Source: Cereibacter sphaeroides 2.4.1 (GTDB taxonomy: Bacteria > Pseudomonadota > Alphaproteobacteria > Rhodobacterales > Rhodobacteraceae). From it: a stretch of 32,000 bases of DNA. The translations under genes were made by a program, and so were the position numbers. The DNA lies in the NCBI RefSeq assembly GCF_000012905.2, contig NC_007493.2, forward strand, positions 240,001-272,000. Reading direction: 5' to 3'. Shown piece after piece: positions 1-15,267 of the stretch (the stretch's first letter is position 1; every line of letters begins with the position of its first letter). A model generated the notes under the pieces. That model was not told the DNA's origin. It did not search any database and saw only the letters and a list, made by a program, of their open reading frames with translations.

Positions 1-479
1 GGGCGATCCATCTGCCGGAGGGGATCTACTTTCCGGTTGTCGGCGCGGTTCTCATCCTGTCCGCCCTTCAGATGGCCCGCGCCGCGATCCTGAGCCCGGG
101 GGTCGGTCCGGCAGTGGTCGGCCGCCCGCCCTTCGCCGCAGCCCTGGCCACGGGGGCGGTCATAGGGTTCGTCTCGGGGACCACCGGCACGGGTGGCGGG
201 GTCTTCCTTGCCCCGATCATCCTGACGATGAAGTGGGGATCGGCGCGGCAAACGGCAGCCACGACAGCAGTTTACAACCTCATCAACTCCTCTGCGGCCC
301 TGCTTGGGACTTACGCCGCCTGGGACCAGGCTCCCTCGGCGCTTCCCGTTTGGCTGGTCGCCGTCGCTGTCGGTGGGACCATCGGCGCCTATATCGGGAG
401 CCGCTATCTGTCTGACCGCTGGCTCCGCGGGACGCTGTCGGTCCTGCTCCTGATGTCGGGCATCAAGCTGATCTGGTGA
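1..479 (+). CDS. TauE/SafE (DUF81) family sulfite-exporter-like membrane permease, C-terminal part (5' end outside window)
   Basis: The frame of ORF 72..479 stays open back to base 3 (AIHLPEGIYFPVVGAVLILSALQ...). The protein is hydrophobic and multi-TM, with a GTGGGVFLAPIIL-type glycine-rich helix typical of TauE/SafE. Stop TGA at 477-479. Confidence 0.75.
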   Translation, partial: AIHLPEGIYFPVVGAVLILSALQMARAAILSPGVGPAVVGRPPFAAALATGAVIGFVSGTTGTGGGVFLAPIILTMKWGSARQTAATTAVYNLINSSAALLGTYAAWDQAPSALPVWLVAVAVGGTIGAYIGSRYLSDRWLRGTLSVLLLMSGIKLIW

Positions 480-2714: not shown

Positions 2715-2794
2715 GCCGGTCCTTCCTTTCGCCAAGCGATCCGGCGGGAGCGCCTGCTCATTGTGTTCCGTGGTGCCGGTGGGCAGACTCTATG

Positions 2795-2823
2795 TTCCTG
2801 CGAGCCCTTTGCGGACGGTCGCA
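2795..2823 (-). terminator. Hairpin just downstream of the EamA stop (CCTGCGA-N15-TCGCAGG); possible terminator or insulator of the cargo cassette
   Basis: 7-bp inverted repeat read directly from the sequence. There is no U-tract, so an intrinsic-terminator function is uncertain. Confidence 0.2.
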
Positions 2824-2827
2824 GGTG

Positions 2828-3700
2828 TCAGCCTGCCGAGAGCAGGATGACTCCCGCTATCAGCACGGCACATCCCACCAGGCGCCACCGGCCAACTGCT
2901 TCGCGCAGGATCAACATGCCCAGAAGCGCCCCCACCATCATCGACATCTCGCGCATCGGGGCGACAAGGCTGAGCGGGGCGCCACCCGTCAGAGCGGCCA
3001 GCACGAGGATGTAGGAGAGCGGAGACAGAAGGCCCACTCCGATCGCGGCCCCCCAGTGCCCGCGCATCGCGCTCAGGGCGCGGCGAGGGTCAGCGATCAC
3101 CAGCGGCAGCAGCAGGAAAAACCGGAGCAGGTTCGAGAACCAGTCGAGCACCACCGGCGCGATGCCGAGCGCTGTCACCGCGAAGGCGTCGACCACCGTG
3201 TAGCTCGCGATCAGGCCGCCCGTTGCGGTGCCCCAGCGGACCCCGGCCTGCCCGCCGGGGCGCGTGAAGGCGGCCAGGCTGCCTCGGGTGGCGATCAGCA
3301 GGATCCCCGCGACGACCAGGGCCAGACCGATCAGACCGGTGCCGGAGGGTGTCTCGCCGAGGATCAGGAACGCCCCGAGGGTCGAGAGCATCGGCCCCGT
3401 CCCTCGCGCCACGGGATAGACCACCGACAGATCGGCCACCTGATAACCGCGCTGCAGGCACAGGCTGTAGGCCAGATGGATCAGTCCGCTGAGCAGCACG
3501 AACCCGATGCCCGTCCAGGTCCAGATGATGCCGTCGTGTATCAGCAGATACAGCACCCATGGCGCGTAGGCCACGCAGGCGATCAGGTTGTAGGCGAAGA
3601 CGAAGACCGGCCCGACCGATGCGGCCGTCTTGGCGAGCAGGTTCCAGCTGGCATGTATGAAGGATGCGAGAACGACAAGAAGCAGCGAGGCAAGCGTCAT
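2828..3700 (-). CDS. EamA/DMT-superfamily transporter (about 10 TM), cargo gene inside the phage packaging module
   Basis: 290 aa from ATG 3700, with RBS AAGGGGG 5 nt upstream. The protein is hydrophobic throughout and has the two-repeat EamA-like architecture (...SWNLLAK...VYPVARGTGPMLSTLGAFLILGE... / ...LVAPMREMSMMVGALLGMLILRE...). The 41 codons upstream in the track ORF are Arg/Gly-rich non-coding leader. Confidence 0.85.
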   Translation of the reverse strand: MTLASLLLVVLASFIHASWNLLAKTAASVGPVFVFAYNLIACVAYAPWVLYLLIHDGIIWTWTGIGFVLLSGLIHLAYSLCLQRGYQVADLSVVYPVARGTGPMLSTLGAFLILGETPSGTGLIGLALVVAGILLIATRGSLAAFTRPGGQAGVRWGTATGGLIASYTVVDAFAVTALGIAPVVLDWFSNLLRFFLLLPLVIADPRRALSAMRGHWGAAIGVGLLSPLSYILVLAALTGGAPLSLVAPMREMSMMVGALLGMLILREAVGRWRLVGCAVLIAGVILLSAG

Positions 3701-3741
3701 TGAGACCCCCTTATGCGCCCATCGGCGCGGTTGATCTCGAC

Positions 3742-3842
3742 GTCTCCTCCCCTGGGCTTTTGTCCCTTGGGTGCTGGCCCGGAGAACTCCCCCGGTCTCT
3801 GCAACGCTCGGTCCTGCGGCCAAAGGCCCGGAACCCTAGTTG
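3742..3842 (-). promoter_or_regulatory. Candidate ykkC-yxkD family riboswitch aptamer (guanidine-I or a ykkC subtype-2 variant) in the 5' leader of the EamA transporter
   Basis: Minus-strand RNA: ACUAGGGUUCCGG (3840-3828), then a GGCC-UUU-GGCC hairpin, then GGACCGAGCG (3814-3805), then a variable hairpin, then GGGACAAAAGCCCAGGGGAG (3766-3747). These match, in order and spacing, the conserved cores I recall for ykkC (CUAGGGUUCCG / GGUCCGAGAG / GGGAUAAAAGCCCGGGAGA). It lies 41 nt upstream of the start codon. No covariance-model score was computed. Confidence 0.65.
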
Positions 3843-3861
3843 CCACTCAGTCGATGCAGTT

Positions 3862-3891
3862 ATGCTAACCACTATCGACCAGCGGCATCAA
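3862..3891 (-). promoter_or_regulatory. Possible sigma70-type promoter for the riboswitch-EamA transcript
   Basis: Minus strand reads TTGATG (3891-3886), an 18-nt spacer, then TAGCAT (3867-3862). It sits in a locally AT-richer stretch about 20 nt upstream of the aptamer. Pattern match only. Confidence 0.25.
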
Positions 3892-4018
3892 TATGCGACT
3901 GGCAGCTTTGTCCGCAATGCCGCCTCCGGGCAGAGTGATCCGGAGATCTCGCCAGGAGCCTTGGCCGTTCCGCCCGTCCCGAGGGCCGCCATTCCCGAAG
4001 CGCGAGCGGCGCCCCCGC

Positions 4019-5677
4019 TCACGCCGTCTCCACCTCCCTTGCGCGGCGGCGGCCTTCGGCGGCTTCGGCGCGCCCCAGGGCCATGATCGCGGCCACCGCC
4101 GGGTCGATCCGGCCCTTCGAGCGCGCCTTGTTCGGCTTGATGTTCTCGGCCGCATCCTCGTCGCGGTGGACGTTGCCCACCGCCCAGGCCAGCACCGGAT
4201 TGCCGGCGTGGCGGATCCGGCCCTTCGCCACCGCCTCCTCGAACCGCTTCATCGGCGAGGACATCGAGCCGTAGCCCTGCCCGTGCTCGACCAGCGGGAA
4301 GCGGCGCTTCAGGAGCTCCTTCGCCATGTATTTCATGCCCCAGCGGTCGTAGGCGAGCTCGCGCAGGTCGAACCGCGCCCGGATCGTCTCCAGCCGCTCG
4401 ATCACCTGATCCTCGTCGATCACCCCGCCGGAATGGACCTCGAGCCAGCCGGCATCGCGCCAGGCGACATATTCGCGCTTCTCCTTCTGCGCCCGCGCGA
4501 TGAAGCCCTTCGGCCCCTCGGGCAGGAAGGAATAGGCCAGGAGATAGATCTGGCCGTCCTTCGGCACGGCGACCGAGATCGCCGTGAGGTCGGTGGTCTT
4601 CGAGAGATCGAGGCCGACCCAAGCGGGCAGCCCGTAGAGCGGCCGCGGGTCGAACGGCTCGGCGCCCCGGTCCCAGACGTCGCGGGCGATCCAGGTCTGG
4701 GCGCCTTCCGTCCAGAGGTTCATGTGCAGCCGGCGGAAGTTCGGCATCTTGCCCGAGATGACCGTGGCCTCGCGGTACATCTCGCCGAACCGTTCTTCCG
4801 AGAAGGCCACGCCGAGGTTCGGGTTCGCCATCTTCCAGAAGCGCGGATCGGCCACGTCGCAGTCGGGCGGGGGCTCGGCCACATAGGCGAAGAAGCTGTC
4901 GTCGCTGACCGTGCCCCGCACCACCTCCTCGGCATAGTCCCGCATCTCGCCGCAGAGGCTCGCGCGGTCGGCGCCGGCGGTGGTGATCGCCCAGTCGATG
5001 GGCTGGGCGCGGGCGATCATCGAGTTCGTGAGCACCTCGGCAAGCTCGCGGTCGGTCCAGCGGTGGACCTCGTCGCGGGCGGCGAAGTGCGGGTTGATCC
5101 CGTCCGAGCTGTTGCCGTCGCGCGAGAGGCAGGCGATCAGCCCCTCGGTCGCCGGCACCTCGATGGAGGTGCGCCAGACCTGCATCAGGGCCGAGAGATG
5201 CGGCGAGGCGCGGATCATGCGCTTGAGCTCGCGGAAGAGGAGCCCGGCCTGGTCGCGCGTGGTGGCGGCGCAATAGCCCTGCGGCGCCGCCTCCCGGTCG
5301 AAGAGCGCGGTGAAGAGGGCGGGCACCGCCGTGTCGGTGGTCTTGCCGTTCTTCTTGGCCACCTGATGGTAGGTGGTGCGGAAGCGGCGGAGGCCGCCTT
5401 CCTTCTTCCAGCCGAAGACCGAACCATGGCGGAAGGCCTGCCAGGGGCGGAGCGTGAGCGGCCGCCCGGCGAGCGGCCCGGTCGTGTGCTGGATCAGCTC
5501 GGCGAAGTTCAGGACCCGGCTCGCGGCCTTGCAGTCGAACCAGAGGCCGCGGTCGCGCCCGGTCTCGAGGTCGGTCAGGTGGCGCAGGCAGGCGAGCCGC
5601 ACCAGGTCTCCGGCGGTCTCGCGGCCCTCGACCACATCGAGCGCATAGCGCGAGACCGGATGGTCAATCGGCTCCAT
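4019..5677 (-). CDS. terL: Phage terminase large subunit (Terminase_1 family)
   Basis: 552 aa. It has a Walker-A-like VAKKNGKTT, and its length and N-terminal ATPase plus C-terminal nuclease layout are typical of TerL. It overlaps the terS stop by 14 nt. Confidence 0.9.
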   Translation of the reverse strand: MEPIDHPVSRYALDVVEGRETAGDLVRLACLRHLTDLETGRDRGLWFDCKAASRVLNFAELIQHTTGPLAGRPLTLRPWQAFRHGSVFGWKKEGGLRRFRTTYHQVAKKNGKTTDTAVPALFTALFDREAAPQGYCAATTRDQAGLLFRELKRMIRASPHLSALMQVWRTSIEVPATEGLIACLSRDGNSSDGINPHFAARDEVHRWTDRELAEVLTNSMIARAQPIDWAITTAGADRASLCGEMRDYAEEVVRGTVSDDSFFAYVAEPPPDCDVADPRFWKMANPNLGVAFSEERFGEMYREATVISGKMPNFRRLHMNLWTEGAQTWIARDVWDRGAEPFDPRPLYGLPAWVGLDLSKTTDLTAISVAVPKDGQIYLLAYSFLPEGPKGFIARAQKEKREYVAWRDAGWLEVHSGGVIDEDQVIERLETIRARFDLRELAYDRWGMKYMAKELLKRRFPLVEHGQGYGSMSSPMKRFEEAVAKGRIRHAGNPVLAWAVGNVHRDEDAAENIKPNKARSKGRIDPAVAAIMALGRAEAAEGRRRAREVETA

Positions 5678-6101
5678 CGAGGGTCTTCAGGATCTCGTCG
5701 AAGAGGTCGCCCTGTCCGGTGACGCGGACGCGGGCCTCGTCGACCGGCGTGAGGCCGAAGCGGGCGGCGAGCTGGTTCATGACGGCGATGGCATCCTGCC
5801 GCTGGCCCCAGACGGCGCGCTTCTTCTGCTGGCGGCCGTTGCGGGTCTCGACCTCGTACCAGCTGCCGAAGGCCGCGATGTCGCCGGTGAAGCGGATGAC
5901 ATCGGCCACGGCCTCGCAATAGACCGCGAACGGATCCTCGAAGGCGGGCTCGAGCCGCTTCTTCGCCACCAGCACCGGGGCGAGCCGGTCCCAGACCTCG
6001 CGGCCTTCCGCGCTCATCCAGCCCGGAGCCTCCGGCACGGGCGCCGCGAGATCGCCCTTCATCGGGATGACGTTCGAGACCTTCGGCTTCTGCCCGCGCA
6101 T
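5664..6101 (-). CDS. terS: Phage terminase small subunit, P27 family
   Basis: 145 aa from ATG 6101 (RBS AAGGA). MRGQKPKVSNV...W..LAPVL...AVYCEAVAD...LAARFGLTPVDEARV fits the P27-family TerS pattern. The longer track ORF (to 6311) is an Arg-rich extension without an RBS. Confidence 0.8.
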   Translation of the reverse strand: MRGQKPKVSNVIPMKGDLAAPVPEAPGWMSAEGREVWDRLAPVLVAKKRLEPAFEDPFAVYCEAVADVIRFTGDIAAFGSWYEVETRNGRQQKKRAVWGQRQDAIAVMNQLAARFGLTPVDEARVRVTGQGDLFDEILKTLDGAD

Positions 6102-6365
6102 CGTGACTGTCCTTGTTCTGTGGGCTGCGCCCGTGCCGGCCCGATCCTCGCCGCATCGGCGGCCGGATCGGGGGCGCCGGGATCGGCGGCCCATCATGTC
6201 TGTTGTGCGCCGCGCGGAGCGGGGGCTCGCGGCCATCGGCTCGTCGTGGATCCGCTGGGGCGGGGGCAGGGGCGGCGGGCAGGTCTCCCGCTTCCTCTCA
6301 TCCCTCTGCACGGTGGGCTTTTTTTGCCAATTCGCCGTGCGTGAAAAGGAAGGTTCGAGCGCCGG

Positions 6366-6779
6366 TTACCTGGCCGACCCCTCCGATTTTGCGATGCCCC
6401 CCGGTGGGTGGAACACCTCGCGCGCGGTCTTGCGGCTGTGGCAGGGCCGGCAGAGCGGCTGCCAGTTGGCCCGGTCCCACATCAGGCCGGGATCGCCGCG
6501 GTGCGGCCGGATGTGGTCGACCTCGGCCGCCGCCACCACGAGCCCGAGCCCCGCGCAGTCGGCGCAGAGCGGATGGGCCGCGAGGAACCGCGCCCGTGCC
6601 CGCCGCCAGCGGCCGGTGGCATAGAAGGCCGCGCCCGCCTGCGCCGCGGCGCCCGCCTTGGCGCGAGCCTTCCGGCTGCGAGCCCGCGCCTCCGCCTCGG
6701 CGGCATGGTCGGCGCAGTGTGCCTGGCCGGCCGGCGCGAGCTCCTCGCAGCCGGGCGCGCAGCAGAGTTTGCGGATCAA
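6366..6779 (-). CDS. Phage-associated HNH endonuclease
   Basis: It has Cys-rich zinc-finger-like motifs (CCAPGC...HCADH; CADCAG) and the HNH core EVDHIRPHRGDPGLMWDRANWQPLCRPCHSRKT. Proposed start is TTG 6779 with GGAG 7 nt upstream. The upstream part of the track ORF overlaps the neighbouring gene. An HNH gene next to terS/terL is the classic cos-phage arrangement. Confidence 0.75.
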   Translation of the reverse strand: MIRKLCCAPGCEELAPAGQAHCADHAAEAEARARSRKARAKAGAAAQAGAAFYATGRWRRARARFLAAHPLCADCAGLGLVVAAAEVDHIRPHRGDPGLMWDRANWQPLCRPCHSRKTAREVFHPPGGIAKSEGSAR

Positions 6780-6796
6780 GGGGAGGCTCCAAAGCG

Positions 6797-6831
6797 AAGC
6801 GCCCGGAGAGCTTGGGGCTCGCCGGGCGCTT
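6797..6831 (-). terminator. Perfect 10-bp stem hairpin (AAGCGCCCGG-N15-CCGGGCGCTT) between the 6883 gene and HNH
   Basis: Read directly. On the minus strand it is followed by CGCUUUGG, a weak U tract. It could be a terminator, attenuator or RNA-processing structure. Confidence 0.3.
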
Positions 6832-6882
6832 GTCTTCGATGATGGCAATCTGCCGAATTGTTTGGGGCAGGTCAAGCCGCTC

Positions 6883-7422
6883 TCAGCGCCACGCCTCGGA
6901 GAGCGCGTCCAGGCCTCGCTGAAGGCGGTCGAGCTGCCGTGCCTCGGATCGGCTGTCCACACGTCCCGGCATGCCACGGAGCGACTGATCGTCCAGAACG
7001 ACATGTTGAATGACGGGCCGAGCAAACGTCGGGACCAACTCCCACATGCGGAAGAACTTCCGCCGCCGATCCACCTGAGCCACCTGCGGATCCTGATCGC
7101 CGCTCATATCGACGCGGACGATGGCGGCCAGCGGATCGCGGGCGGGCATGCCCGAGGCCGCCTCGAAGAGCTCGGCCGCGATGTTGGCCTGCTCGACCGA
7201 GAGCTTGCCCTGCCGGTGATAGCGCCCGACCCAGGTCTCGCGCCTCGTGCGGATCACCCTGTTCGGGTTGCTCTTCTTGCCCGTCTTCGGATCGACCTCG
7301 GCCGCCTCCTCGATCCGCTTGCCCGCGATCTGTGCGGGCGTCAGCGGCCCCAGATCCCACGGCGCGAGCTTCAGGCTCACCAGCTTCGCCTTCATGGCCT
7401 TGCGGCCCTTCGCGCCCCTCAT
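6883..7422 (-). CDS. Hypothetical phage protein (possibly DUF6456-like / HTH-containing)
   Basis: High-GC3 ORF with ATG 7422 preceded by AAGGACAGGGG. Its pattern (..LSVEQANIAAELFEAA.. ; C-terminal ..VVLDDQSLRGM...QLDRLQRGLDALSEAW) is reminiscent of DUF6456 proteins. That assignment comes from memory only. Confidence 0.55.
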   Translation of the reverse strand: MRGAKGRKAMKAKLVSLKLAPWDLGPLTPAQIAGKRIEEAAEVDPKTGKKSNPNRVIRTRRETWVGRYHRQGKLSVEQANIAAELFEAASGMPARDPLAAIVRVDMSGDQDPQVAQVDRRRKFFRMWELVPTFARPVIQHVVLDDQSLRGMPGRVDSRSEARQLDRLQRGLDALSEAWR

Positions 7423-7576
7423 GCGGCACCCCTGTCCTTGTTCTTGTTGTTTTTGCTGTCCGCTCGTCCGCACCGGCTCTGCCCGCCGCATGTCCACCGC
7501 TCTGCCGATCATGCCGACGTCTCCCTCTGCACCGCGCTCCTGCCCGGCCGGACCGCCGTCTTCTTCCCGAGCCCGA

Positions 7577-8149
7577 TCATGCTGCCGCCCCTTCCTTGCG
7601 GCCGCGGCCGGCGTCCACCAGCGCGCGGGCCTGGGCCCGGTCGCGGAGATAGAGCTCGAGCCAGTCGCGATCCTCCCGGCTCGCGGTCTCCCGGTCGATC
7701 CGGTCGCGGATCAGCTCGCAGCGCCGGGCATTGTCCTGCGCCTGGTCGCGGATCTCGCGCAGGTCCATCGCGAGCGGCGGGCGCGGGTGTTTGAGCAGCC
7801 AGCGGTAGAGTTCGACCAGATGCCCGCCCGCTTCCGCCTTCGGTCCCTCGACCGAGGCGAGCCAGCTCGACACCAGCCGCCGCTCCGCCGGCGGCGGCTC
7901 CTCGATGGCGCGCGCGAACTGCCGGATCAGCACCTCGGACGGCCAGACCCCATCCGCCGCGCTGTCGATCAGCACCTCGGCCAAGGTCATCAGGTTCTCC
8001 GCCCCCATGTAGCCCAGCTGCTCGCAGAGCCGCGCCATCGCCGCCTCGTGCGCCGCGGCGGCCGTGCCGCGCCGCCTCACCATCCCGGCCTGCTCCAGCC
8101 GGTCCACCACCAGCGCCTTCACCCGCGCCCGCTCCTCTGCCTTCGTCAT
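7577..8149 (-). CDS. Hypothetical phage protein
   Basis: The ORF 7577..8191 has high GC3. Preferred start is ATG 8149 (GAAAGGG then 6 nt). ATG 8155 is also possible. I recognise no family. Confidence 0.55.
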   Translation of the reverse strand: MTKAEERARVKALVVDRLEQAGMVRRRGTAAAAHEAAMARLCEQLGYMGAENLMTLAEVLIDSAADGVWPSEVLIRQFARAIEEPPPAERRLVSSWLASVEGPKAEAGGHLVELYRWLLKHPRPPLAMDLREIRDQAQDNARRCELIRDRIDRETASREDRDWLELYLRDRAQARALVDAGRGRKEGAAA

Positions 8150-8363: not shown

Positions 8364-9053
8364 TCATGTCAGCTGAACGACCTTCGGCCCGCCGCGCGTC
8401 GCCTCGAACGCGGCCCGCACGTTGTCGGAGGTGATGAAGAGATCGCGCTGGCCCAGCCATTCGGCAATCTCGTTCACCACGTCCGGGCTCTCGGCCGCGC
8501 GGCCGCATTTGATCTCGACGAGCTTCCTGCGGACGCGGGTCCGCGCCATCGCCTTGGAGCCTTCCGTCCGCGCCTGATCGCGCCCGCGCTTCCTGCGGTG
8601 CATGTCGCGGGCAATCCCCGCGATCATCACATGGCCGAGCCGGCGGTTGCCCGGCGCCTCCTCCTGGTTCGAGATATGGGTCTCGCGCCAGCCGTAGAGC
8701 GCGCCCTCGCGCGCCGCCCGCCAGCTCTCGAGATCGGCGCCGTAGCCCGCGAGGCGGGCGAGCTCGAGATCGTCGTCGGGCAGCGTCCCGGCCGGGTCCT
8801 GCCGGAAGGCCTCGCACCAGAGGAGGAGGGCGGTGCCGATGTCCGCCCGCCGGTTCTCGGCCAGCGCCCGGGCGACGAAGCGGGAGGTGAGGAGGCGGTT
8901 GATGTGCAAGGGCACCCATTCGTGGCTCGAGAGCGTGTCGCCGAAGGCCAGCGGATATTCCCAGAAATCGCCGACGATCTCGGTCGGAGGATCGGTCTCG
9001 GTCAGTCGGTCATGCGGCACGGGCACCTCCCGCGGCGCGTCGGAAGCGGTCAC
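8364..9053 (-). CDS. DUF1376 (YdaU-like) domain phage protein, likely replication-associated
   Basis: 229 aa. The N-terminal FWEYPLAFGDTLSSHEWVPLHINRLLTS...ALLLWCEAFRQDPAGTLPDDDLELARLAG resembles the DUF1376 pattern found in alphaproteobacterial prophages. Assignment from memory. Confidence 0.55.
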   Translation of the reverse strand: MTASDAPREVPVPHDRLTETDPPTEIVGDFWEYPLAFGDTLSSHEWVPLHINRLLTSRFVARALAENRRADIGTALLLWCEAFRQDPAGTLPDDDLELARLAGYGADLESWRAAREGALYGWRETHISNQEEAPGNRRLGHVMIAGIARDMHRRKRGRDQARTEGSKAMARTRVRRKLVEIKCGRAAESPDVVNEIAEWLGQRDLFITSDNVRAAFEATRGGPKVVQLT

Positions 9054-9059
9054 GCTTCG

Positions 9060-9611
9060 TCATGGCAGGCCTCCATAGATGAAGACGGGCACCTGGGCTG
9101 TGAGGGCGGATGCGACCTCGTGCCGGATGCCGGTGGAGTCTGACCAGCCGCGGATCTCGGGGACCACGACGGCGGCGCAGACGGTGAGAAGGGGGCGGCA
9201 CCAGTCCTCCCAGAGGACGGGGTTGAACGGGTCAATCCAAAGCCTGGGGAACATGGTGGCATGGAGCGCGGCGGCCGAGAGCTCCACCGGCGAGATCGCC
9301 GTGACGCCCACCTCGAGGAGCCGCGCGACCTCGCGCGCCGCCTCGGCCATGGCCGCTTCCGACTGATCCCGCGACCAGCGGCCGTCCGGGCCGACCGCGC
9401 GGAGCGTGTAAGGGCTCGCCAGATAGACCGGCCGCCCCCAGCGCGCGTGCCGCGCGACGAGCGCCGGATCGGCATGCCACCGCAGCAGATCCGCCCGGCC
9501 TGCAGGATGGCGTCGCAGCGCGGTCCACCCGTTCGATCGAAAAGCGCCGGAGGCCGCAGCCCCCGGCGAAGTGGCCGCGTCCTGTACAGGCAAGGGCGCG
9601 GCGGCGGTCAC
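9060..9611 (-). CDS. DUF1937-like (nucleoside 2-deoxyribosyltransferase-fold) phage protein
   Basis: The core VYLASPYTL...AMAEAAREVARLLEVGVTAISPV...VVVPEIRGWSDSTGIRHEVASALTAQVPVFIY is typical of DUF1937. The start is uncertain. GTG 9611 (GGAG 6 nt upstream, GTGA overlap with the upstream stop) gives an unusually long low-complexity N-terminus of about 60 aa. An out-of-frame ATG at 9475 followed by a G-run could indicate an indel. Confidence 0.55.
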   Translation of the reverse strand: MTAAAPLPVQDAATSPGAAASGAFRSNGWTALRRHPAGRADLLRWHADPALVARHARWGRPVYLASPYTLRAVGPDGRWSRDQSEAAMAEAAREVARLLEVGVTAISPVELSAAALHATMFPRLWIDPFNPVLWEDWCRPLLTVCAAVVVPEIRGWSDSTGIRHEVASALTAQVPVFIYGGLP

Positions 9612-9799
9612 AGAAGGCTCCCGAGAGCGGTGAGCAGTGCCCAGACGCCCCAAGCGATGAGGGAGGATCCGATGATGACGGACGGCACGAGCCACCAGCA
9701 GGAGGGGAGAGGGAGGCACGCAAAACCGCAACAGCCGGCTTGCGGTTCTTCACGGTGGCGCTCCTCAGGTTGCCCGGCATCGCGAAGCCTGAATGTCAT
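9608..9799 (-). CDS. Small Cys/Trp-rich single-pass membrane protein (63 aa), unknown function
   Basis: ATG 9799 has GGAGA 5 nt upstream. The C-terminal TM segment is WWLVPSVIIGSSLIAWGVWALLTALGSLL. GC3 is high in the TM half. The stop overlaps the next gene's GTG (GTGA). The longer 129-aa track ORF overlaps the Cro-like gene out of frame. Confidence 0.45.
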   Translation of the reverse strand: MTFRLRDAGQPEERHREEPQAGCCGFACLPLPSCWWLVPSVIIGSSLIAWGVWALLTALGSLL

Positions 9800-9815
9800 G
9801 TGTTTCTCCATGCTT

Positions 9816-10058
9816 TCAGCCGAACTTCGCCGGTAGCTCATGCTGAGCGGCAGCCAGCACTGCCGCGATATTCGGCCAGGAAGAGATCGGTACTGCTCCG
9901 CCTGTCGCCACGGCGATCCGCGTTGCCACATCGAGGCTTGGCAATCTGGAACCTTCGAGCAGACAGTGCAGGTGCGGCCTTGAAATGCCGAACTCATCGG
10001 CCCATTGGGACCGGGATTTCTCGGGTCGGCCCTTGATGTAATCGGACAGGATGCTCAT
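9816..10058 (-). CDS. Cro/YdaS-like HTH DNA-binding protein (first gene of the leftward operon)
   Basis: 80 aa from ATG 10058. ...SQWADEFGISRPHLHCLLEGSRLPSLDVATRIAVATGGAVPISSW is a typical Cro/YdaS-type HTH. It is divergent from the XRE repressor gene. Confidence 0.7.
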   Translation of the reverse strand: MSILSDYIKGRPEKSRSQWADEFGISRPHLHCLLEGSRLPSLDVATRIAVATGGAVPISSWPNIAAVLAAAQHELPAKFG

Positions 10059-10068
10059 GTCGCTGGTC

Positions 10069-10084
10069 GTCACACATTGCGACA
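10069..10084. promoter_or_regulatory. Operator-like site O1 (GTCACACATTGCGACA) in the cro-like/XRE divergent intergenic region
   Basis: It matches the 16-mer repeated at 10638-10653 and 10671-10686 at 15 of 16 positions. It is a pseudo-palindrome GTCnCA-N3-TGnGAC. It lies 11 nt from the cro-like ATG, just downstream of a perfect minus-strand TTGACA (10094-10089), and contains a plus-strand TTGCGA. Confidence 0.5.
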
Positions 10085-10162
10085 GGGCTGTCAATGAGTA
10101 TCAGGGCTGGTTGTCGCCATTCCGGGCGAGCTTTCGGGGTATGGGCGTTCTATACCAAACCT

Positions 10163-10456
10163 ATGGCCCTGCGGATCAAACAGTTACGGGAAGCTCGCGG
10201 CTGGACTCAGGAAGTCCTGGCTGCCCGTTCAGGGATGTCGCGGTCACAACTCGCGATGATTGAGCGCGAGACGCGGCCCGCCAACACAATCCGCCTCAAT
10301 GCGATTGCCGGGGCACTGGGCGTCTCTACGGAAGACTTGTTCGAAAGCAACCCGCGAGAGCGTGCTTTACTTGAGCTTATTCGCCTGCTTCCGAGCGAGG
10401 ATGTCGAAGCGTTGATACGCGTTGCTGAAGGCCTTGCGGCGAAGTCGCAAGCCTAA
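10163..10456 (+). CDS. XRE-family HTH transcriptional regulator (CI-like repressor, no S24 peptidase domain)
   Basis: 97 aa from ATG 10163. LRIKQLREARGWTQEVLAARSGMSRSQLAMIERETRPANTIRLNAIAGALGVSTEDLF is a canonical HTH_3/XRE domain. The preceding 23 codons of the track ORF lack coding character. Confidence 0.8.
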   Translation: MALRIKQLREARGWTQEVLAARSGMSRSQLAMIERETRPANTIRLNAIAGALGVSTEDLFESNPRERALLELIRLLPSEDVEALIRVAEGLAAKSQA

Positions 10457-11966: not shown

Positions 11967-13785
11967 ATGGCTAAGGACTTCATCTCCCGAGGCGATCTGC
12001 GCCTCATCCCGCTCGCCGAGCTCCGGCTCTCGCCGCTCAACAGCCGGCAGGAGATCGCGGCCGAGGAGGTCGAGGCCATGGCCGAGAGCCTCGCCGTGGC
12101 GGGGCTTCTCCAGAACCTCATCGGCCATCTGACGCCCCAAGGCATCGAGATCGTGGGCGGCGGCACCCGGCTCCGCGCGCTGCAGCGCCTCGCGGCCGAG
12201 GGCTGGAGCCGGCATGCGGATCTCATTCCGATAGATCCGGTGCCGGTGAAGGTGACGGCCGACCTGCAGGAAGCGGTGGCCTGGGCCGGCACCGAGAACA
12301 GCGCGCGCTCGGCGCTGCACCCGGCCGACGAGGTCCGCGCCTATGCCGCGATGCGCGAGCGGGGCGCTAGCCTGTCGCGGATCGCGCGCAGCTTTGCCCG
12401 CTCCGAGGCTCATGTCGAGCGGCGGCTGAAGCTCGCGGACCTGCCGGCCGAGGCGCTGGCGGCGCTCCGCGCGAACGAGATCTCGCTCGAGATGGCGAAG
12501 GCGCTGACGTTCGCCCCGAGCGGCGAGCGCTGCCTCGAAGTTCTCGCGTCGGTGCGGGGCCGCGACGTGCGGCCCGAGCAGGTGCGGCGCGAGCTCACAC
12601 CCGGCACCGTGCCCTCGACCGACCGGCGGGCGGTCTTCGTGGGGCTCGAGGCCTATCTCGCCGCCGGTGGAACCTCTCAGCGCGATCTCTTCGCCGACCG
12701 GACGCTGCTGGAGGACGAGGCGCTCCTCGACCGGCTCTTCGCCGAGAAGGGCGCGGCCGAGGCCGAGCGGATCCGCGCGGAAGAGGGCTGGGAATGGGCG
12801 ACATGGGTGCCGGAGGAATATGTCTCCTGGACCGTCACGCAGAAGCTGGTGCGTCTCTACGCCCGGCCGGGGAAGCTCTCGGAAGGAGAGGAAGCGGAGC
12901 TCGCGGCGCTCGAGGAGCGCGAGGCCGACGACACCCTCGACGAGCCCGGCCGCGCGCGGCTGGCCGAGCTCGAGGCCCGGCGCGAGGGGGGCTTCACCGA
13001 CGCGCAGCGCGCCTCGGCCGGGATCTTCGTCTATTGCAGCAGCCGGGACGGGCTCTCGGTCGAGCGGGCCTATCAGCAGCCGCGGCGGTTCCGCGCGGCG
13101 CGGCCGAGCTGGCACCCGACCTGCCGCAGTCGCTGATCGAGGACCTGCATCGGATCCGGCTCGGGGCGCTGCAGGCGCGGCTGATGGACCAGTCCGAGCT
13201 CATGCTCGACCTTCTCGCCTGGTCCCTCGGCGGCGGCCTCAGGCCCTGGGCGCGCCCGCTCGCGATCTCACCCACCGACCAGCCCATCGTGCCGGAGAAG
13301 GGCGAAGGCACCAGCTACCCGCCGCGGCTGGCGGCACGGCTCGAGCCGAATGCGAGCTTCGGCCCGACGGCACCCCGGCCGAGTTCGAGGCTTCCGGGGC
13401 GCAGGGGAAGAAACACCGCAACCAGATCCTGACCGAGGCCCTCGCGCGGACTTTCTGCACCGGCAGCTCCGGCCTCTCGGCCGCGCTCGCGCGCCAGCTC
13501 GGGGTCGAGGTGCGCCGGATCTGGACGCCCACCGCCCAGGGATTTCTCGGCCGCTGCAGCGCGGGCTATCTCGACCGGCTCTGGAATGAGCTCGTGCCGG
13601 CGGCCGAGGCGGAGCCAGCTCATCAGAGCTTCAACAAGCTGAAGAAGGGGGAGAAGGCGAAGCGCCTCGAGGCGCTCTTCGCCGATCCCGACACCCGCGA
13701 GGCCCTTGGCCTCAGCCGCGAGGACTGCGCGAAGATCGACGCGTGGGTGCCGGCCGAGCTCGGCTGGCCGGAGGGCGAGGAATGA
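11967..13785 (+). pseudogene. ParB/Srx N-terminal-domain (ParB-like nuclease/partition) protein gene split over three reading frames by two frameshifts
   Basis: - Frame 0, 11967 to about 13082: ParBc domain with ..IEIVGGGTRLRALQRL.. through ..GIFVYCSSRDGLSVERAYQQP.
- Frame 2, about 13100-13340: coding-like continuation ..LPQSLIEDLHRIRLGALQARLMDQSELMLDLLAWSL...
- Frame 1, about 13366-13785: ..DGTPAEFEASGAQGKKHRNQILTEAL...KKGEKAKRLEALFADPDTREALGLSREDCAKIDAWVP.
- The repaired length would be about 606 aa.
- The frameshifts could instead be sequencing errors in GC runs. Confidence 0.65.
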
Positions 13786-13860: not shown

Positions 13861-14103
13861 ATGAGCGCTAGGCGATCCCTAACTTTCGCGCCGCGGCTTC
13901 TCGGCGCGGCCGAGGCGGCGGCCTATCTGGGCGTGAGCGCGACAACGCTCCGTGGCCTTGACCTGCCGCGGCGGGTGCTGGGCGGGCGGCGGCTGTATGA
14001 CAGGCTCGATCTTGACGCCTTCGCCTCGGACCTGCCGGTTGAGGGGGAGACTTTCGAATCGGAGGTGGAGCTGTGCGACCGCCATTTCGGGATGCAGGCG
14101 TGA
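13861..14103 (+). CDS. Excisionase/AlpA-type helix-turn-helix DNA-binding protein
   Basis: 80 aa. LLGAAEAAAYLGVSATTLRGLDLPRRVLGGRRLYDRLDLDAF is a typical HTH_17/excisionase pattern. Strong RBS GGAAGGGGAAAGGA. It lies directly upstream of the integrase with a GTGA overlap. Confidence 0.7.
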   Translation: MSARRSLTFAPRLLGAAEAAAYLGVSATTLRGLDLPRRVLGGRRLYDRLDLDAFASDLPVEGETFESEVELCDRHFGMQA

Positions 14104-15161
14104 AGCTGCCCCGGGTGCAGCGCATCCGGCGTGGCGACCGGGTGCTCTGCTATCATCGGCCGACCGGAACCCGGTTGCCGGATCTGCCCGAGACCCATCC
14201 CGACTTCATCGCGGCTTGGGCCAAGGCCGAGGCCTCGAAGCCAGATCTGGCGCCGCCCGTTGCGGACAAGTCGGTCGCGAAGGTCGTGCGAGCGCTCCGC
14301 GCGTCGAAGAGGTGGAAGGGGTTTGCCGCGAGCTATCGGCTGAACTTGCGCTTCCATCTCGAGCGAATCGAGACGGAGCACGGCGCCCTGCCGCTGCGGG
14401 GCCTGCGGCAGAAGCATGTCGAGATGGATCTCGGCAAGCTCGATCCGAACCCGCGCAATGTGTCGCTGAAATGCTGGCGGCTCATCTTCGCGCAGGCCAA
14501 GGCGGACGGGATCATCGAGAGCGACCCGAGCCACGAGATCGGAAAGATCGTGACGAAATCGCCCGGCCACGTCGCGTGGACGACGGCCGAGGTGGCGGCC
14601 TTCCGGGCGCGGTGGGCGGTGGGGACGCGCCAGCGCGCAGCCTTCGAGCTGCTCGCCTGGACCGGCTGCCGCGTCTCGGACGCTTGCCGCATGACGCGCA
14701 CCCATCTCGGCAGCGACGGGCTCATGACCTTCCGCCAGCAGAAGACCGGAGGGCCCGCCTATGTGCCCTGGACCTGCGCGCTCCCCTCGTGGGCGCTCCG
14801 GTGGGAAGAGGAGCGCGAGACGGTGCGCGCAGCGGTGATGGCCACGGCCGGCTTCACCCTGCTTGAGACGAGCTACGGGAAGGCGCGGTCGGTGAAGGGT
14901 CTGTCGAACTTCATCACCGCTGCCGCGGCCGAGGCGGGGATCGAGGGGCGCACGCCGCACGGCTTGCGCAAATTCCGGCTCACGGCCATCGCGGAAGCGG
15001 GCGGTCCTGCCCATGCGATCATGGCCTGGGGCGGGCATGCGAGCCTCTCAGAAGCCGAGGCTTACACCCGCGCCGCCAGCCGGCGCGGCCTCGTGATGGG
15101 GCCGGAACAAGAACGGAACGATGTAAACGACCCCGGAAATTCCTGTAAACGCGCCAAATAG
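14100..15161 (+). CDS. int: Tyrosine recombinase / phage integrase
   Basis: Catalytic-domain landmarks are WTGCRVSDACRM (Arg), HGLRKFRLT (His-x-x-Arg) and WGGHASLSEAEAYTR (His...Tyr). The start is placed at GTG 14100, overlapping the xis stop. The track start GTG 14073 is also possible. It ends 30 bp from the 3' end of tRNA-Arg. Confidence 0.85.
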   Translation: MKLPRVQRIRRGDRVLCYHRPTGTRLPDLPETHPDFIAAWAKAEASKPDLAPPVADKSVAKVVRALRASKRWKGFAASYRLNLRFHLERIETEHGALPLRGLRQKHVEMDLGKLDPNPRNVSLKCWRLIFAQAKADGIIESDPSHEIGKIVTKSPGHVAWTTAEVAAFRARWAVGTRQRAAFELLAWTGCRVSDACRMTRTHLGSDGLMTFRQQKTGGPAYVPWTCALPSWALRWEEERETVRAAVMATAGFTLLETSYGKARSVKGLSNFITAAAAEAGIEGRTPHGLRKFRLTAIAEAGGPAHAIMAWGGHASLSEAEAYTRAASRRGLVMGPEQERNDVNDPGNSCKRAK

Positions 15162-15191: not shown

Positions 15192-15267
15192 TGGTGACCC
15201 CGGCAGGACTTGAACCTGCAACCTATCCCTTAGGAGGGGATCGCTCTATCCGTTGAGCTACGGGGCC
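15192..15267 (-). tRNA. tRNA-Arg (anticodon CCU)
   Basis: The minus strand folds as a 76-nt cloverleaf.
- Sequence: GGCCCCG-TA-GCTC-AACGGATA-GAGC-G-ATCCC-CTCCTAA-GGGAT-AGGTT-GCAGG-TTCAAGT-CCTGC-CGGGGTC-A-CCA.
- Acceptor stem is 7 bp with one G-U pair.
- T-loop is TTCAAGT.
- Anticodon loop CT-CCT-AA gives CCU (Arg).
- The 3' CCA is encoded. Confidence 0.9.

Follow-up and report, generated by a model that had tools for sequence, protein, structure and literature searches.

The window analysed here, a stretch of 32,000 nucleotides from the alphaproteobacterium Cereibacter sphaeroides 2.4.1 (positions 240,001 to 272,000 of NC_007493.2; GC content 69%), contains the head-gene module of a prophage in which an EamA-family transporter gene, preceded by a conserved RNA leader, stands between the genes for the large terminase subunit and the portal protein. 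Coordinates are those of the window, and features lie on the minus strand unless stated otherwise. The flanks of the element are formed upstream by terL (4019-5677; Pfam TerL_ATPase and TerL_nuclease) and downstream by the portal gene (1446-2714; Pfam Phage_portal, 242.6 bits), and the EamA/DMT transporter gene between them (2828-3700; Pfam EamA) encodes a protein of 290 amino acids. As an earlier note on this DNA had pointed out, terL and portal are separated by extra co-oriented DNA: the gap amounts to 1304 bp, including 318 bp between terL and the EamA gene. That note treated the entire 318-bp spacer as a leader; the length holds, but the conserved leader covers only about 155 nt (3855-3701), and positions 4018-3901 are phage DNA. 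The module further includes terS, encoding the small terminase subunit (5664-6311), and an S49 protease gene (490-1449). The prophage is HK97-like and is integrated beside tRNA-Arg(CCT) (15192-15267), which adjoins a tyrosine integrase gene (14073-15161, plus strand).

A scan of one genome per species yielded 274 relatives of the EamA protein, of which the best 80 loci were kept (70-97% protein identity, mostly Alphaproteobacteria). In 76 of these 80 loci, the ~155 nt that directly precede the start codon share 76-96% identity with window positions 3857-3701, and the sequence further upstream of this leader is not conserved. Four homologues from Sphingomonas and Bradyrhizobium (L049, L055, L067 and L078) have no leader, with neither the motif nor a match to the covariance model R1 introduced below; the transporter is therefore not always accompanied by the riboswitch candidate.

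An alignment of 77 leaders (A1) was folded with RNAalifold and subjected to an explicit test of the structure of the ykkC riboswitch family against 500 column shuffles. RNAalifold recovers the helices P1, P1a/P1b, P2 and P3. Under the explicit ykkC structure, 99.5% of the cells are standard pairs, 11 pairs show compensatory changes on both sides (79 cells), and none of the 500 shuffles matches the real alignment on any of five measures; when the 3' partners are slid by 1-3 columns, pairing drops to only 31-46%. The first part of the fold (3801-3843) consists of P1 (3843-3839 with 3805-3801), a UAGGGUU internal loop, P1a and the variable P1b hairpin (GGGCC-UUU-GGCC), with both-side changes at three of the five pairs of P1 and at three of the six pairs of P1a/P1b, one of which occurs as GC 48 times, AU 22 times and GU six times. 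The P2 hairpin (CCGGGG ... CUCCGG, 3779-3795) has changed on both sides at four of six pairs, including one seen as CG (34), GC (27) and UA (13), and AU and CG variants of a GC pair are found in P3. The three sequence blocks that the earlier note had likened to the conserved ykkC cores, ACUAGGGUUCCGG (3840-3828), GGACCGAGCG (3814-3805) and GGGACAAAAGCCCAGGGGAG (3766-3747), are present exactly where it had placed them, as is the GGCC-UUU-GGCC hairpin between the first two, and the blocks can be folded into the ykkC architecture of P1, P1a, P1b, P2 and P3.

The covariance model R1, built from the 76 chromosomal EamA leaders with the window left out, has one strong match in the 32-kb window, at 3733-3855, which is full-length (model positions 1-124) and scores 137.3 bits with E = 5.7e-41; the window leader differs from the family consensus at one of the 108 columns with a conservation of 90% or more. 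Judged by sequence comparison, the leader is a real structured RNA, with a match far beyond chance. A second R1 match inside a ParB-like open reading frame (12786-12899, plus strand; 11.6 bits, E = 0.068) was treated as noise.

The context of this RNA and its gene becomes clear from related phages. Relatives of TerL were found in 73 viral loci. Where TerL identity is 83% or less, terL and portal lie 20-130 bp apart, with the exception of L127. The 13 loci with 99-100% TerL identity have terL-portal gaps of 640-1290 bp, and EamA is encoded in none of them. Across the sister junctions (L081-L090, L138, L139, L141 and L144), the cargo belongs to at least seven unrelated types, including GNAT, glyoxalase/VOC, RES-domain, GFA-family and beta-lactamase-fold proteins and a protein of 255 amino acids. 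The N-terminus of this last protein reads like a putative signal peptide.

Comparison with the sister phages and with chromosomal homologues delimits the cassette to 2784-3900, with edges accurate to within ~15 bp. Homology to the sister phages stops at ~3901 on the terL side (at 3928, 3990 or 4011 in some sisters) and restarts at ~2783 or 2763 on the portal side, and the chromosomal homologues L003, L007 and L013 align from 3916, 3909 and 3906 to 2814, 2805 and 2798, respectively. The GC content is 0.663 in 3001-4000, compared to 0.70-0.73 in the flanks. An inverted repeat that lacks a U tract (CCUGCGA...UCGCAGG, 2791-2825) comes after the EamA stop codon and spans the edge between cassette and phage.

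Just downstream of the terL-side breakpoint lies a predicted sigma-70-type promoter (3863-3891), which consists of a -35 box TTGATG (3891-3886), a 17-nt spacer and a -10 box TTAGCA (3868-3863) located ~7 nt upstream of AUCGAC, the first conserved motif of the leader. The pattern TTGnnn-N16-18-nTAnnn-N5-9-ATCGAC is present in 71 of the 77 homologous loci compared to 0.5 expected in shuffles, with a TTGA peak at -36/-35 and a YTAR peak at -13/-12. We infer that the cassette brings its own conserved, putative promoter. Given such a promoter, expression in the lysogen is possible, and the cassette could act there by lysogenic conversion; since it also runs in the same direction as the late genes and no upstream terminator was found, it is probably transcribed in lytic growth as well. 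A weak match to the Rfam small RNA family P37 over the cassette promoter (3849-3895; 18.3 bits, E = 0.41) was dismissed as chance.

The chromosomal homologues show a complementary picture. In none of the 80 EamA homologue loci is TerL, portal, TerS or S49 encoded within 4 kb, and the neighbours vary by genome: ilvC and dnaE, a type II secretion system-type ATPase, SDR and ABC1 kinase genes, NDH-2, or LprI and DUF2059 genes. Among the loci sampled, there are no conserved chromosomal neighbours that would hint at the ligand. In other C. sphaeroides strains, the unit occupies ordinary loci, such as LprI-EamA-DUF2059-rplU-rpmA-obg, and these chromosomal copies, with aptamers scoring 134-146 bits, are 92.5-94% identical to the window cassette at the DNA level. 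In Rhodobacter sp. NSM (L001, 1900-2757, minus strand), a chromosomal riboswitch-EamA unit lies ~1.2 kb from a gene with the Pfam domain Rcc01698_C, whose name derives from a protein encoded in the gene-transfer-agent cluster of Rhodobacter, and a native riboswitch-EamA locus may lie beside a cluster of that type.

The suggestion of the earlier note that the unit is phage cargo is borne out by these observations: related phages lack the cassette at the terL-portal junction, its homologues reside in non-phage contexts, and it has promoter boxes of its own. Morons, in the sense of Hendrix and colleagues, are lysogenic-conversion cargo genes. The cassette interrupts a pair of genes that are direct neighbours in related phages, and the content of the slot varies among close relatives; on sequence grounds it appears to fit most of the moron definition, the terminator excepted.

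The insertion is not confined to a single assembly. The identical EamA protein occurs in 174 blocks of the assembly collection, and all ten contexts listed show the order terS-terL-EamA-portal-protease, including three contigs of 3.19-3.84 Mb that represent complete genomes. The protein also has the same sequence as ABA77794.1, from C. sphaeroides ATCC 17023, which is strain 2.4.1. In CP047031.1 (L154), a complete genome with the same prophage, terL (6022-7812) is called as 596 amino acids, the portal gene (8987-10215) is split into two open reading frames (242 and 167 amino acids), and the gene of a second prophage cargo, TauE, is shortened; these changes look like frameshifts or strain-specific prophage decay. 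Outside these genomes, a strict motif scan of IMG/VR gave 0 matches, no EamA relatives were found in IMG/VR, and the terL-portal module had no megablast match among deposited phage genomes. A tblastn search of deposited phages with EamA returned only four matches, at ~31-36% identity, and no close homologue; two of the four are in Salmonella draft-genome contigs (515-582 kb) and two in short, unannotated phage-named records (1.6 and 3.3 kb).

The transporter itself scores 56.5 bits against Pfam EamA (cut-off 28.2), in two stretches that correspond to two EamA repeats. A hydropathy scan gives 15 overlapping hydrophobic windows, read as roughly 10 transmembrane segments, which is compatible with the ~10 proposed previously. 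The ratio of nonsynonymous to synonymous substitution rates (dN/dS) relative to the chromosomal copies is 0.085-0.15.

These data bear directly on whether the cassette is anything more than a neutral hitch-hiker in a recombination hotspot, of no use to phage or lysogen, with a riboswitch and transporter that may be unexpressed at this site. The unrelated cargo in the sister slots suggests frequent illegitimate exchange and not specific selection, no cassette relative is present in IMG/VR or the deposited phage genomes, and the phage copy has diverged by 6-7% from every sampled chromosomal copy. Against such a passive origin stand the full-length open reading frame with its low dN/dS, the preservation of 107 of the 108 conserved leader columns together with intact promoter boxes and Shine-Dalgarno sequence (SD), and the recurrence of the identical protein in its prophage context in many assemblies, complete genomes included. 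We therefore regard the hitch-hiker explanation as unlikely.

The prophage contains a second cargo slot. Between the S49 protease and major capsid genes, on the opposite strand, lies the C-terminal part of a TauE/SafE-family gene (72-479, plus strand), which is present in full, with 247 amino acids, in L155 and L156 (11222-11965, minus strand) and, among the sister phages, only in L081. Protease-capsid gaps are ~660-1130 bp in the sister loci, compared to ~160 bp in distant relatives; given that both this and the terL-portal gap vary, the head-gene module has two cargo hotspots. Neither RF00442 nor R1 detects a ykkC-like RNA upstream of the prophage TauE gene, and none was found upstream of four TauE homologues. 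The latter sit among mobile-element-type genes (type IV secretion and conjugation genes, integrases, IS66 and phage-like replication genes), and a promoter-like motif is the only part of the TauE leaders that aligns. The presence of both TauE and EamA in one prophage may hint that a single chemical stress has favoured the carriage of export functions by this phage.

With respect to the class of the leader RNA, an Rfam search of the whole window at the gathering threshold finds tRNA only and no riboswitch. With permissive filters, model positions 1-107 of RF00442 (Guanidine-I) align to 3747-3850 within the searched region 3650-4050, with 44.6 bits and E = 6e-7. The earlier note had looked to RF00442 for a score above the cutoff; full-length alignment was obtained, but only with permissive filters and below the gathering score of 63 bits. 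A weak match of the leader to the Rfam family Chlorobi-1 (E = 6) was dismissed as chance. The candidate aptamer, including conserved 5' and 3' extensions, spans 3733-3855, with the RF00442 core at 3747-3850, and two of its features separate it from guanidine-I RNAs. First, the discriminator nucleotide at 3806 is C, giving CCGAGCG here compared to the guanidine-I consensus CCGAGAG in the cmscan alignment. Second, in the segment that comprises a CACCC stretch and P3 (3754-3773; P3 is GGG-ACAAAAG-CCC), the CACCC just 5' of P3 (3773-3769) replaces the guanidine-I pocket sequence CACGG (ACGR). Within this stretch, the equivalent of G67, the floor of the guanidine-I pocket in Dickeya dadantii numbering, is C. 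Both features are invariant in the 77 leaders.

These replacements match published descriptions of ykkC subtype 2, whose members keep the ykkC fold and differ in the pocket nucleotides (PMC6031431, PMC5340920). The conserved guanidine-I adenosine (A46 of Reiss, A38 in D. dadantii) is a pyrimidine in subtype 2 (C49) and is the residue used to tell both apart (PMC6031431, PMC5340920), and the equivalent of G67 is likewise a pyrimidine (PMC5340920). Moreover, subtype 2d is defined by the EamA gene (first called phn_DUF6) that lies downstream, and TauE/SafE is also associated with this subtype (PMC7266159, PMC5912903). Subtype 2d is a published orphan riboswitch candidate class with no assigned ligand (PMC7266159, PMC5912903), and as late as 2023 it figured among the orphan models (PMC9881157). 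Given the subtype-2 pyrimidines and the downstream EamA gene, the RNA is filed as a subtype-2d candidate and not as a guanidine-I riboswitch with an odd target: the leader is best filed as a candidate ykkC subtype-2d riboswitch ahead of its canonical target gene. The proposal of a ykkC-family riboswitch-like RNA ahead of a DMT/EamA gene is thus supported, and leaving the ligand subtype open was the right choice; the view that an EamA target is unusual has to be abandoned, EamA being the defining target of this published subtype. The location in a phage packaging module does remain unusual, and it is only the location that is so, the RNA class being already known. In an Ancylobacter contig from a metagenome-assembled genome (L065), two subtype-2d aptamer copies (56-180, minus strand, and 3845-3969, plus strand; 139.7 bits each) lie in inverted orientation ~3.7 kb apart, which suggests a duplicated or inverted riboswitch-gene unit.

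An RNA of an orphan class could conceivably be a structured regulatory element without small-molecule sensing, responding to a protein, temperature or ions, in which case subtype 2d would not be a true riboswitch. Although it has received attention, the class has kept its orphan status from 2017-2018 onwards (PMC7266159; PMC9881157, 2023), and our literature search found no later report of a ligand. However, small-molecule ligands are known for all the other subtypes of this scaffold, namely guanidine, guanosine tetraphosphate (ppGpp), phosphoribosyl pyrophosphate (PRPP) or nucleoside diphosphates (PMC7266159), and the nucleotides that differ lie around the known ligand pocket (PMC5912903). 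Furthermore, the leader is kept across unrelated contexts with no conserved neighbour among those sampled, which speaks against a dedicated protein partner with its gene in the vicinity. We thus consider an RNA of this kind improbable.

The alternative that the leader is a divergent guanidine-I riboswitch that senses guanidinium and turns on a guanidine exporter, in line with the framing of the earlier note, fares slightly worse. RF00442 is the only Rfam family that matches, and does so over its full length; the ykkC fold is shared, the target belongs to the DMT superfamily, as do guanidine exporters, and the 2d consensus has been described as the subtype most like guanidine-I, with a small, charged and toxic ligand akin to guanidine suggested (PMC5912903). 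Nevertheless, the score falls short of the gathering value, and the two invariant cytosines, C3806 and that replacing G67, a base which stacks on the guanidinium ion, depart from the guanidine-I pocket (PMC6031431, PMC5340920). Guanidine is reported not to be bound by those subtype 2 RNAs that have been examined (PMC6003355), and no guanidine carboxylase or Gdx genes are found among the sampled neighbours. Taken together, the guanidine reading appears very improbable. The last alternative, a host gene at its native position around which phage genes decayed, could appeal to the chromosomal copies in other Cereibacter strains, but is effectively refuted by the contiguous and ordered phage module (terS, terL, portal, protease, capsid and tail genes), by phage homology that breaks and resumes precisely at the cassette edges, by the other genes at the same junction in sister phages and by the different, phage-free neighbourhoods of the chromosomal copies, so that relatives do not share the position that the earlier note had named as fatal to the cargo interpretation.

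Returning to the subtype-2d candidate, conservation extends beyond the Rfam core to AUCGAC (3855-3850) upstream and to GGAGAC-GUCGAGAUCAACC downstream, and these extensions suggest how the RNA might control translation. UCGAC (3850-3854) would form the 5' strand of a predicted helix, P0, that closes the aptamer by pairing with GUCGA (3741-3737); 99.7% of its cells are paired in the 77 leaders, the variants being U-G, G-U and U-G wobbles and one mismatch. The 3' strand of P0 belongs to a switching sequence, GUCGAGAUC (3733-3741), which can alternatively act as an anti-SD and anti-AUG strand. In this second role, GAGAUC (3738-3733) pairs with GGUCUC (3707-3702) in an OFF helix that is paired in 99.4% of cells, with one pair seen as UG (66), UA (8) and CG (3), and in 76 of 76 leaders GUC (3741-3739) extends the pairing to the G of the AUG and to the first two positions of codon 2. 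The earlier note had recognized GGUCUC but placed it at 3708-3703 and assigned it other partners: pairing with GAGACC (3799-3794) is broken in 28 + 8 of the 77 leaders and that with GAGAC (3746-3742) in 15 of 77, and GAGAUC is the partner that is kept instead. Between the two strands of the OFF helix, a hairpin of variable length and sequence, here GCGCC-GAU-GGGCGC (3715-3728), appears in the minimum-energy fold and in nearly all leaders. The SD AAGGGGG (3712-3706), a spacer and the AUG of EamA (3700-3698) occupy 3698-3712, as read from the sequence. In the minimum-energy fold of the window leader (-71.0 kcal/mol), the OFF helix is present, and the 3' portion of the SD is base-paired along with the spacer and the AUG; when P0 is forced (-61.8 kcal/mol), the SD and AUG are free.

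The expression platform is thus likely a helix that sequesters the SD and AUG and competes with the closing helix P0. Because a terminator scan found no hairpin followed by a U tract in the leader, translational control is likelier, as the earlier note had also suspected, and is the most probable mode. Without ligand, GUCGAGAUC (3741-3733) would pair with GGUCUC-AAU-GAC (3707-3696), a duplex that would hide the start codon and the spacer as well as the 3' end of the SD; once ligand is bound, P0 (UCGAC 3854-3850 with GUCGA 3741-3737) would close the aptamer and, by taking the same strand as the anti-SD helix, free the ribosome-binding site. The predicted result is a translational ON switch, a logic that fits the characterised ykkC-family classes, which are ON switches (PMC6031431), and its likely outcome would be inducible export of a small toxic metabolite. 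Precedent for P0 is provided by the add-on closing helix of the ppGpp and PRPP classes, as described in PMC6031431 and by Peselis and Serganov 2018, as cited in PMC10043782.

Thus, we propose, with a probability of about three in four, that positions 2784-3900 constitute a self-contained host unit captured by the prophage, comprising a promoter, a ykkC subtype-2d leader and a phn_DUF6-like EamA gene, for which we further propose translational ON switching. Several observations weigh against this proposal. The single-sequence fold of the leader is no more stable than those of shuffled sequences (z = -0.63); given the strong covariation, the support for the RNA is therefore comparative and not thermodynamic. 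Membership in subtype 2d rests on published descriptions and gene association, with no match to a separate Rfam 15 family, and, in the absence of an assigned ligand, riboswitch function of subtype 2d has candidate status even in the literature. The best NCBIfam match of the protein, TIGR03340 (phn_DUF6), reaches 115 bits and so stays below the trusted cut-off of 288 bits, and the purifying selection was measured mostly along chromosomal lineages and is no proof for the phage copy. A strict scan with the Escherichia coli sigma-70 consensus finds no promoter on either strand, and of the three terminator-like sites in a scan, none is a minus-strand site in the interval from the EamA stop (2828) to the portal start (2714). 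As for the switch, the forced-P0 state is ~9 kcal/mol less stable than the OFF fold, a difference for which ligand binding, tertiary contacts or folding during transcription would need to compensate. Moreover, P0 and the anti-SD helix are both nearly invariant, showing conservation and single changes compatible with wobble pairs but no double compensatory change, and so the switch is not proven by covariation.

Whether the copy on the phage functions as a ligand-gated efflux module, which would provide lysogens with inducible tolerance to a toxic metabolite, is a more tentative matter, and on present evidence we consider it somewhat doubtful. If true, strain 2.4.1 and near-isogenic sister prophages without the cassette would offer a natural contrast that, combined with the P0/anti-SD switching model, could serve to identify what the last orphan ykkC class binds, the more so in that C. 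sphaeroides 2.4.1 is a type strain that is genetically tractable and widely used as a model and the sister prophages differ only in the terL-portal slot. The element as such is not new, both the RNA class and its link to EamA having been published, and only the phage location is unusual. The present analysis nonetheless suggests that an orphan riboswitch class travels on a temperate phage as a complete promoter-riboswitch-gene unit, provides subtype 2d, through the 77-leader alignment, with a testable switch between a closing helix and an SD/AUG-sequestering helix, and corrects a plausible mis-annotation as a guanidine riboswitch.

Among known systems, the closest is ykkC subtype 2d itself (Nelson 2017; Sherlock 2018, 2019; PMC7266159), with which the window RNA shares the P1/P1a/P1b/P2/P3 fold, the discriminator pyrimidine, the altered pocket, the position directly upstream of a phn_DUF6-type EamA gene and a proteobacterial host. 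It differs in that the window copy lies in a prophage head-gene module and not at a chromosomal locus, and in that its family has 5' AUCGAC and 3' GUCGAGAUC extensions that would be able to close the aptamer and double as a switching strand; the available part of PMC5912903 mentions conserved extensions for subtypes 2a-2c and not for 2d. Guanidine-I riboswitches (RF00442, subtype 1) have the same architecture, most of the tertiary-contact nucleotides (CUAGGGUUCCG, GGACCGAG and an A-rich P3 loop), an efflux-type gene downstream and the ON-switch logic that is proposed here; unlike them, the window RNA scores below the gathering value, carries C in place of A at 3806 and CACCC in place of CACGG, and has another gene association. 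The ppGpp and PRPP riboswitches (subtypes 2a and 2b) resemble the window RNA in scaffold, in the discriminator pyrimidine and in extensions before P1 and after P3 that form a closing helix. However, these classes come from Firmicutes, work for the most part through transcription termination and regulate genes for the biosynthesis of amino acids or purines, whereas the window RNA comes from an alphaproteobacterium and has a putative SD/AUG-sequestering platform, a transporter target and a 12-nt linker between P3 and the closing helix.

As for the cassette as a whole, it is similar to phage morons in being an extra gene between otherwise adjacent genes, with its own putative promoter, a GC content below that of the flanks and a slot whose content varies. 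In contrast to typical morons, this cargo has a riboswitch-class leader, such that its expression would be ligand-dependent, and no clear terminator was found. Phage-borne riboswitches have been described as rare, a known case being the glutamine riboswitches of marine phages (PMC9004378), which likewise place a metabolite-sensing RNA class on a phage genome. Those riboswitches, however, belong to lytic phages and are tied to phage functions, whereas the cassette described here is carried by a temperate phage and appears to represent a complete host-type promoter-riboswitch-transporter unit.

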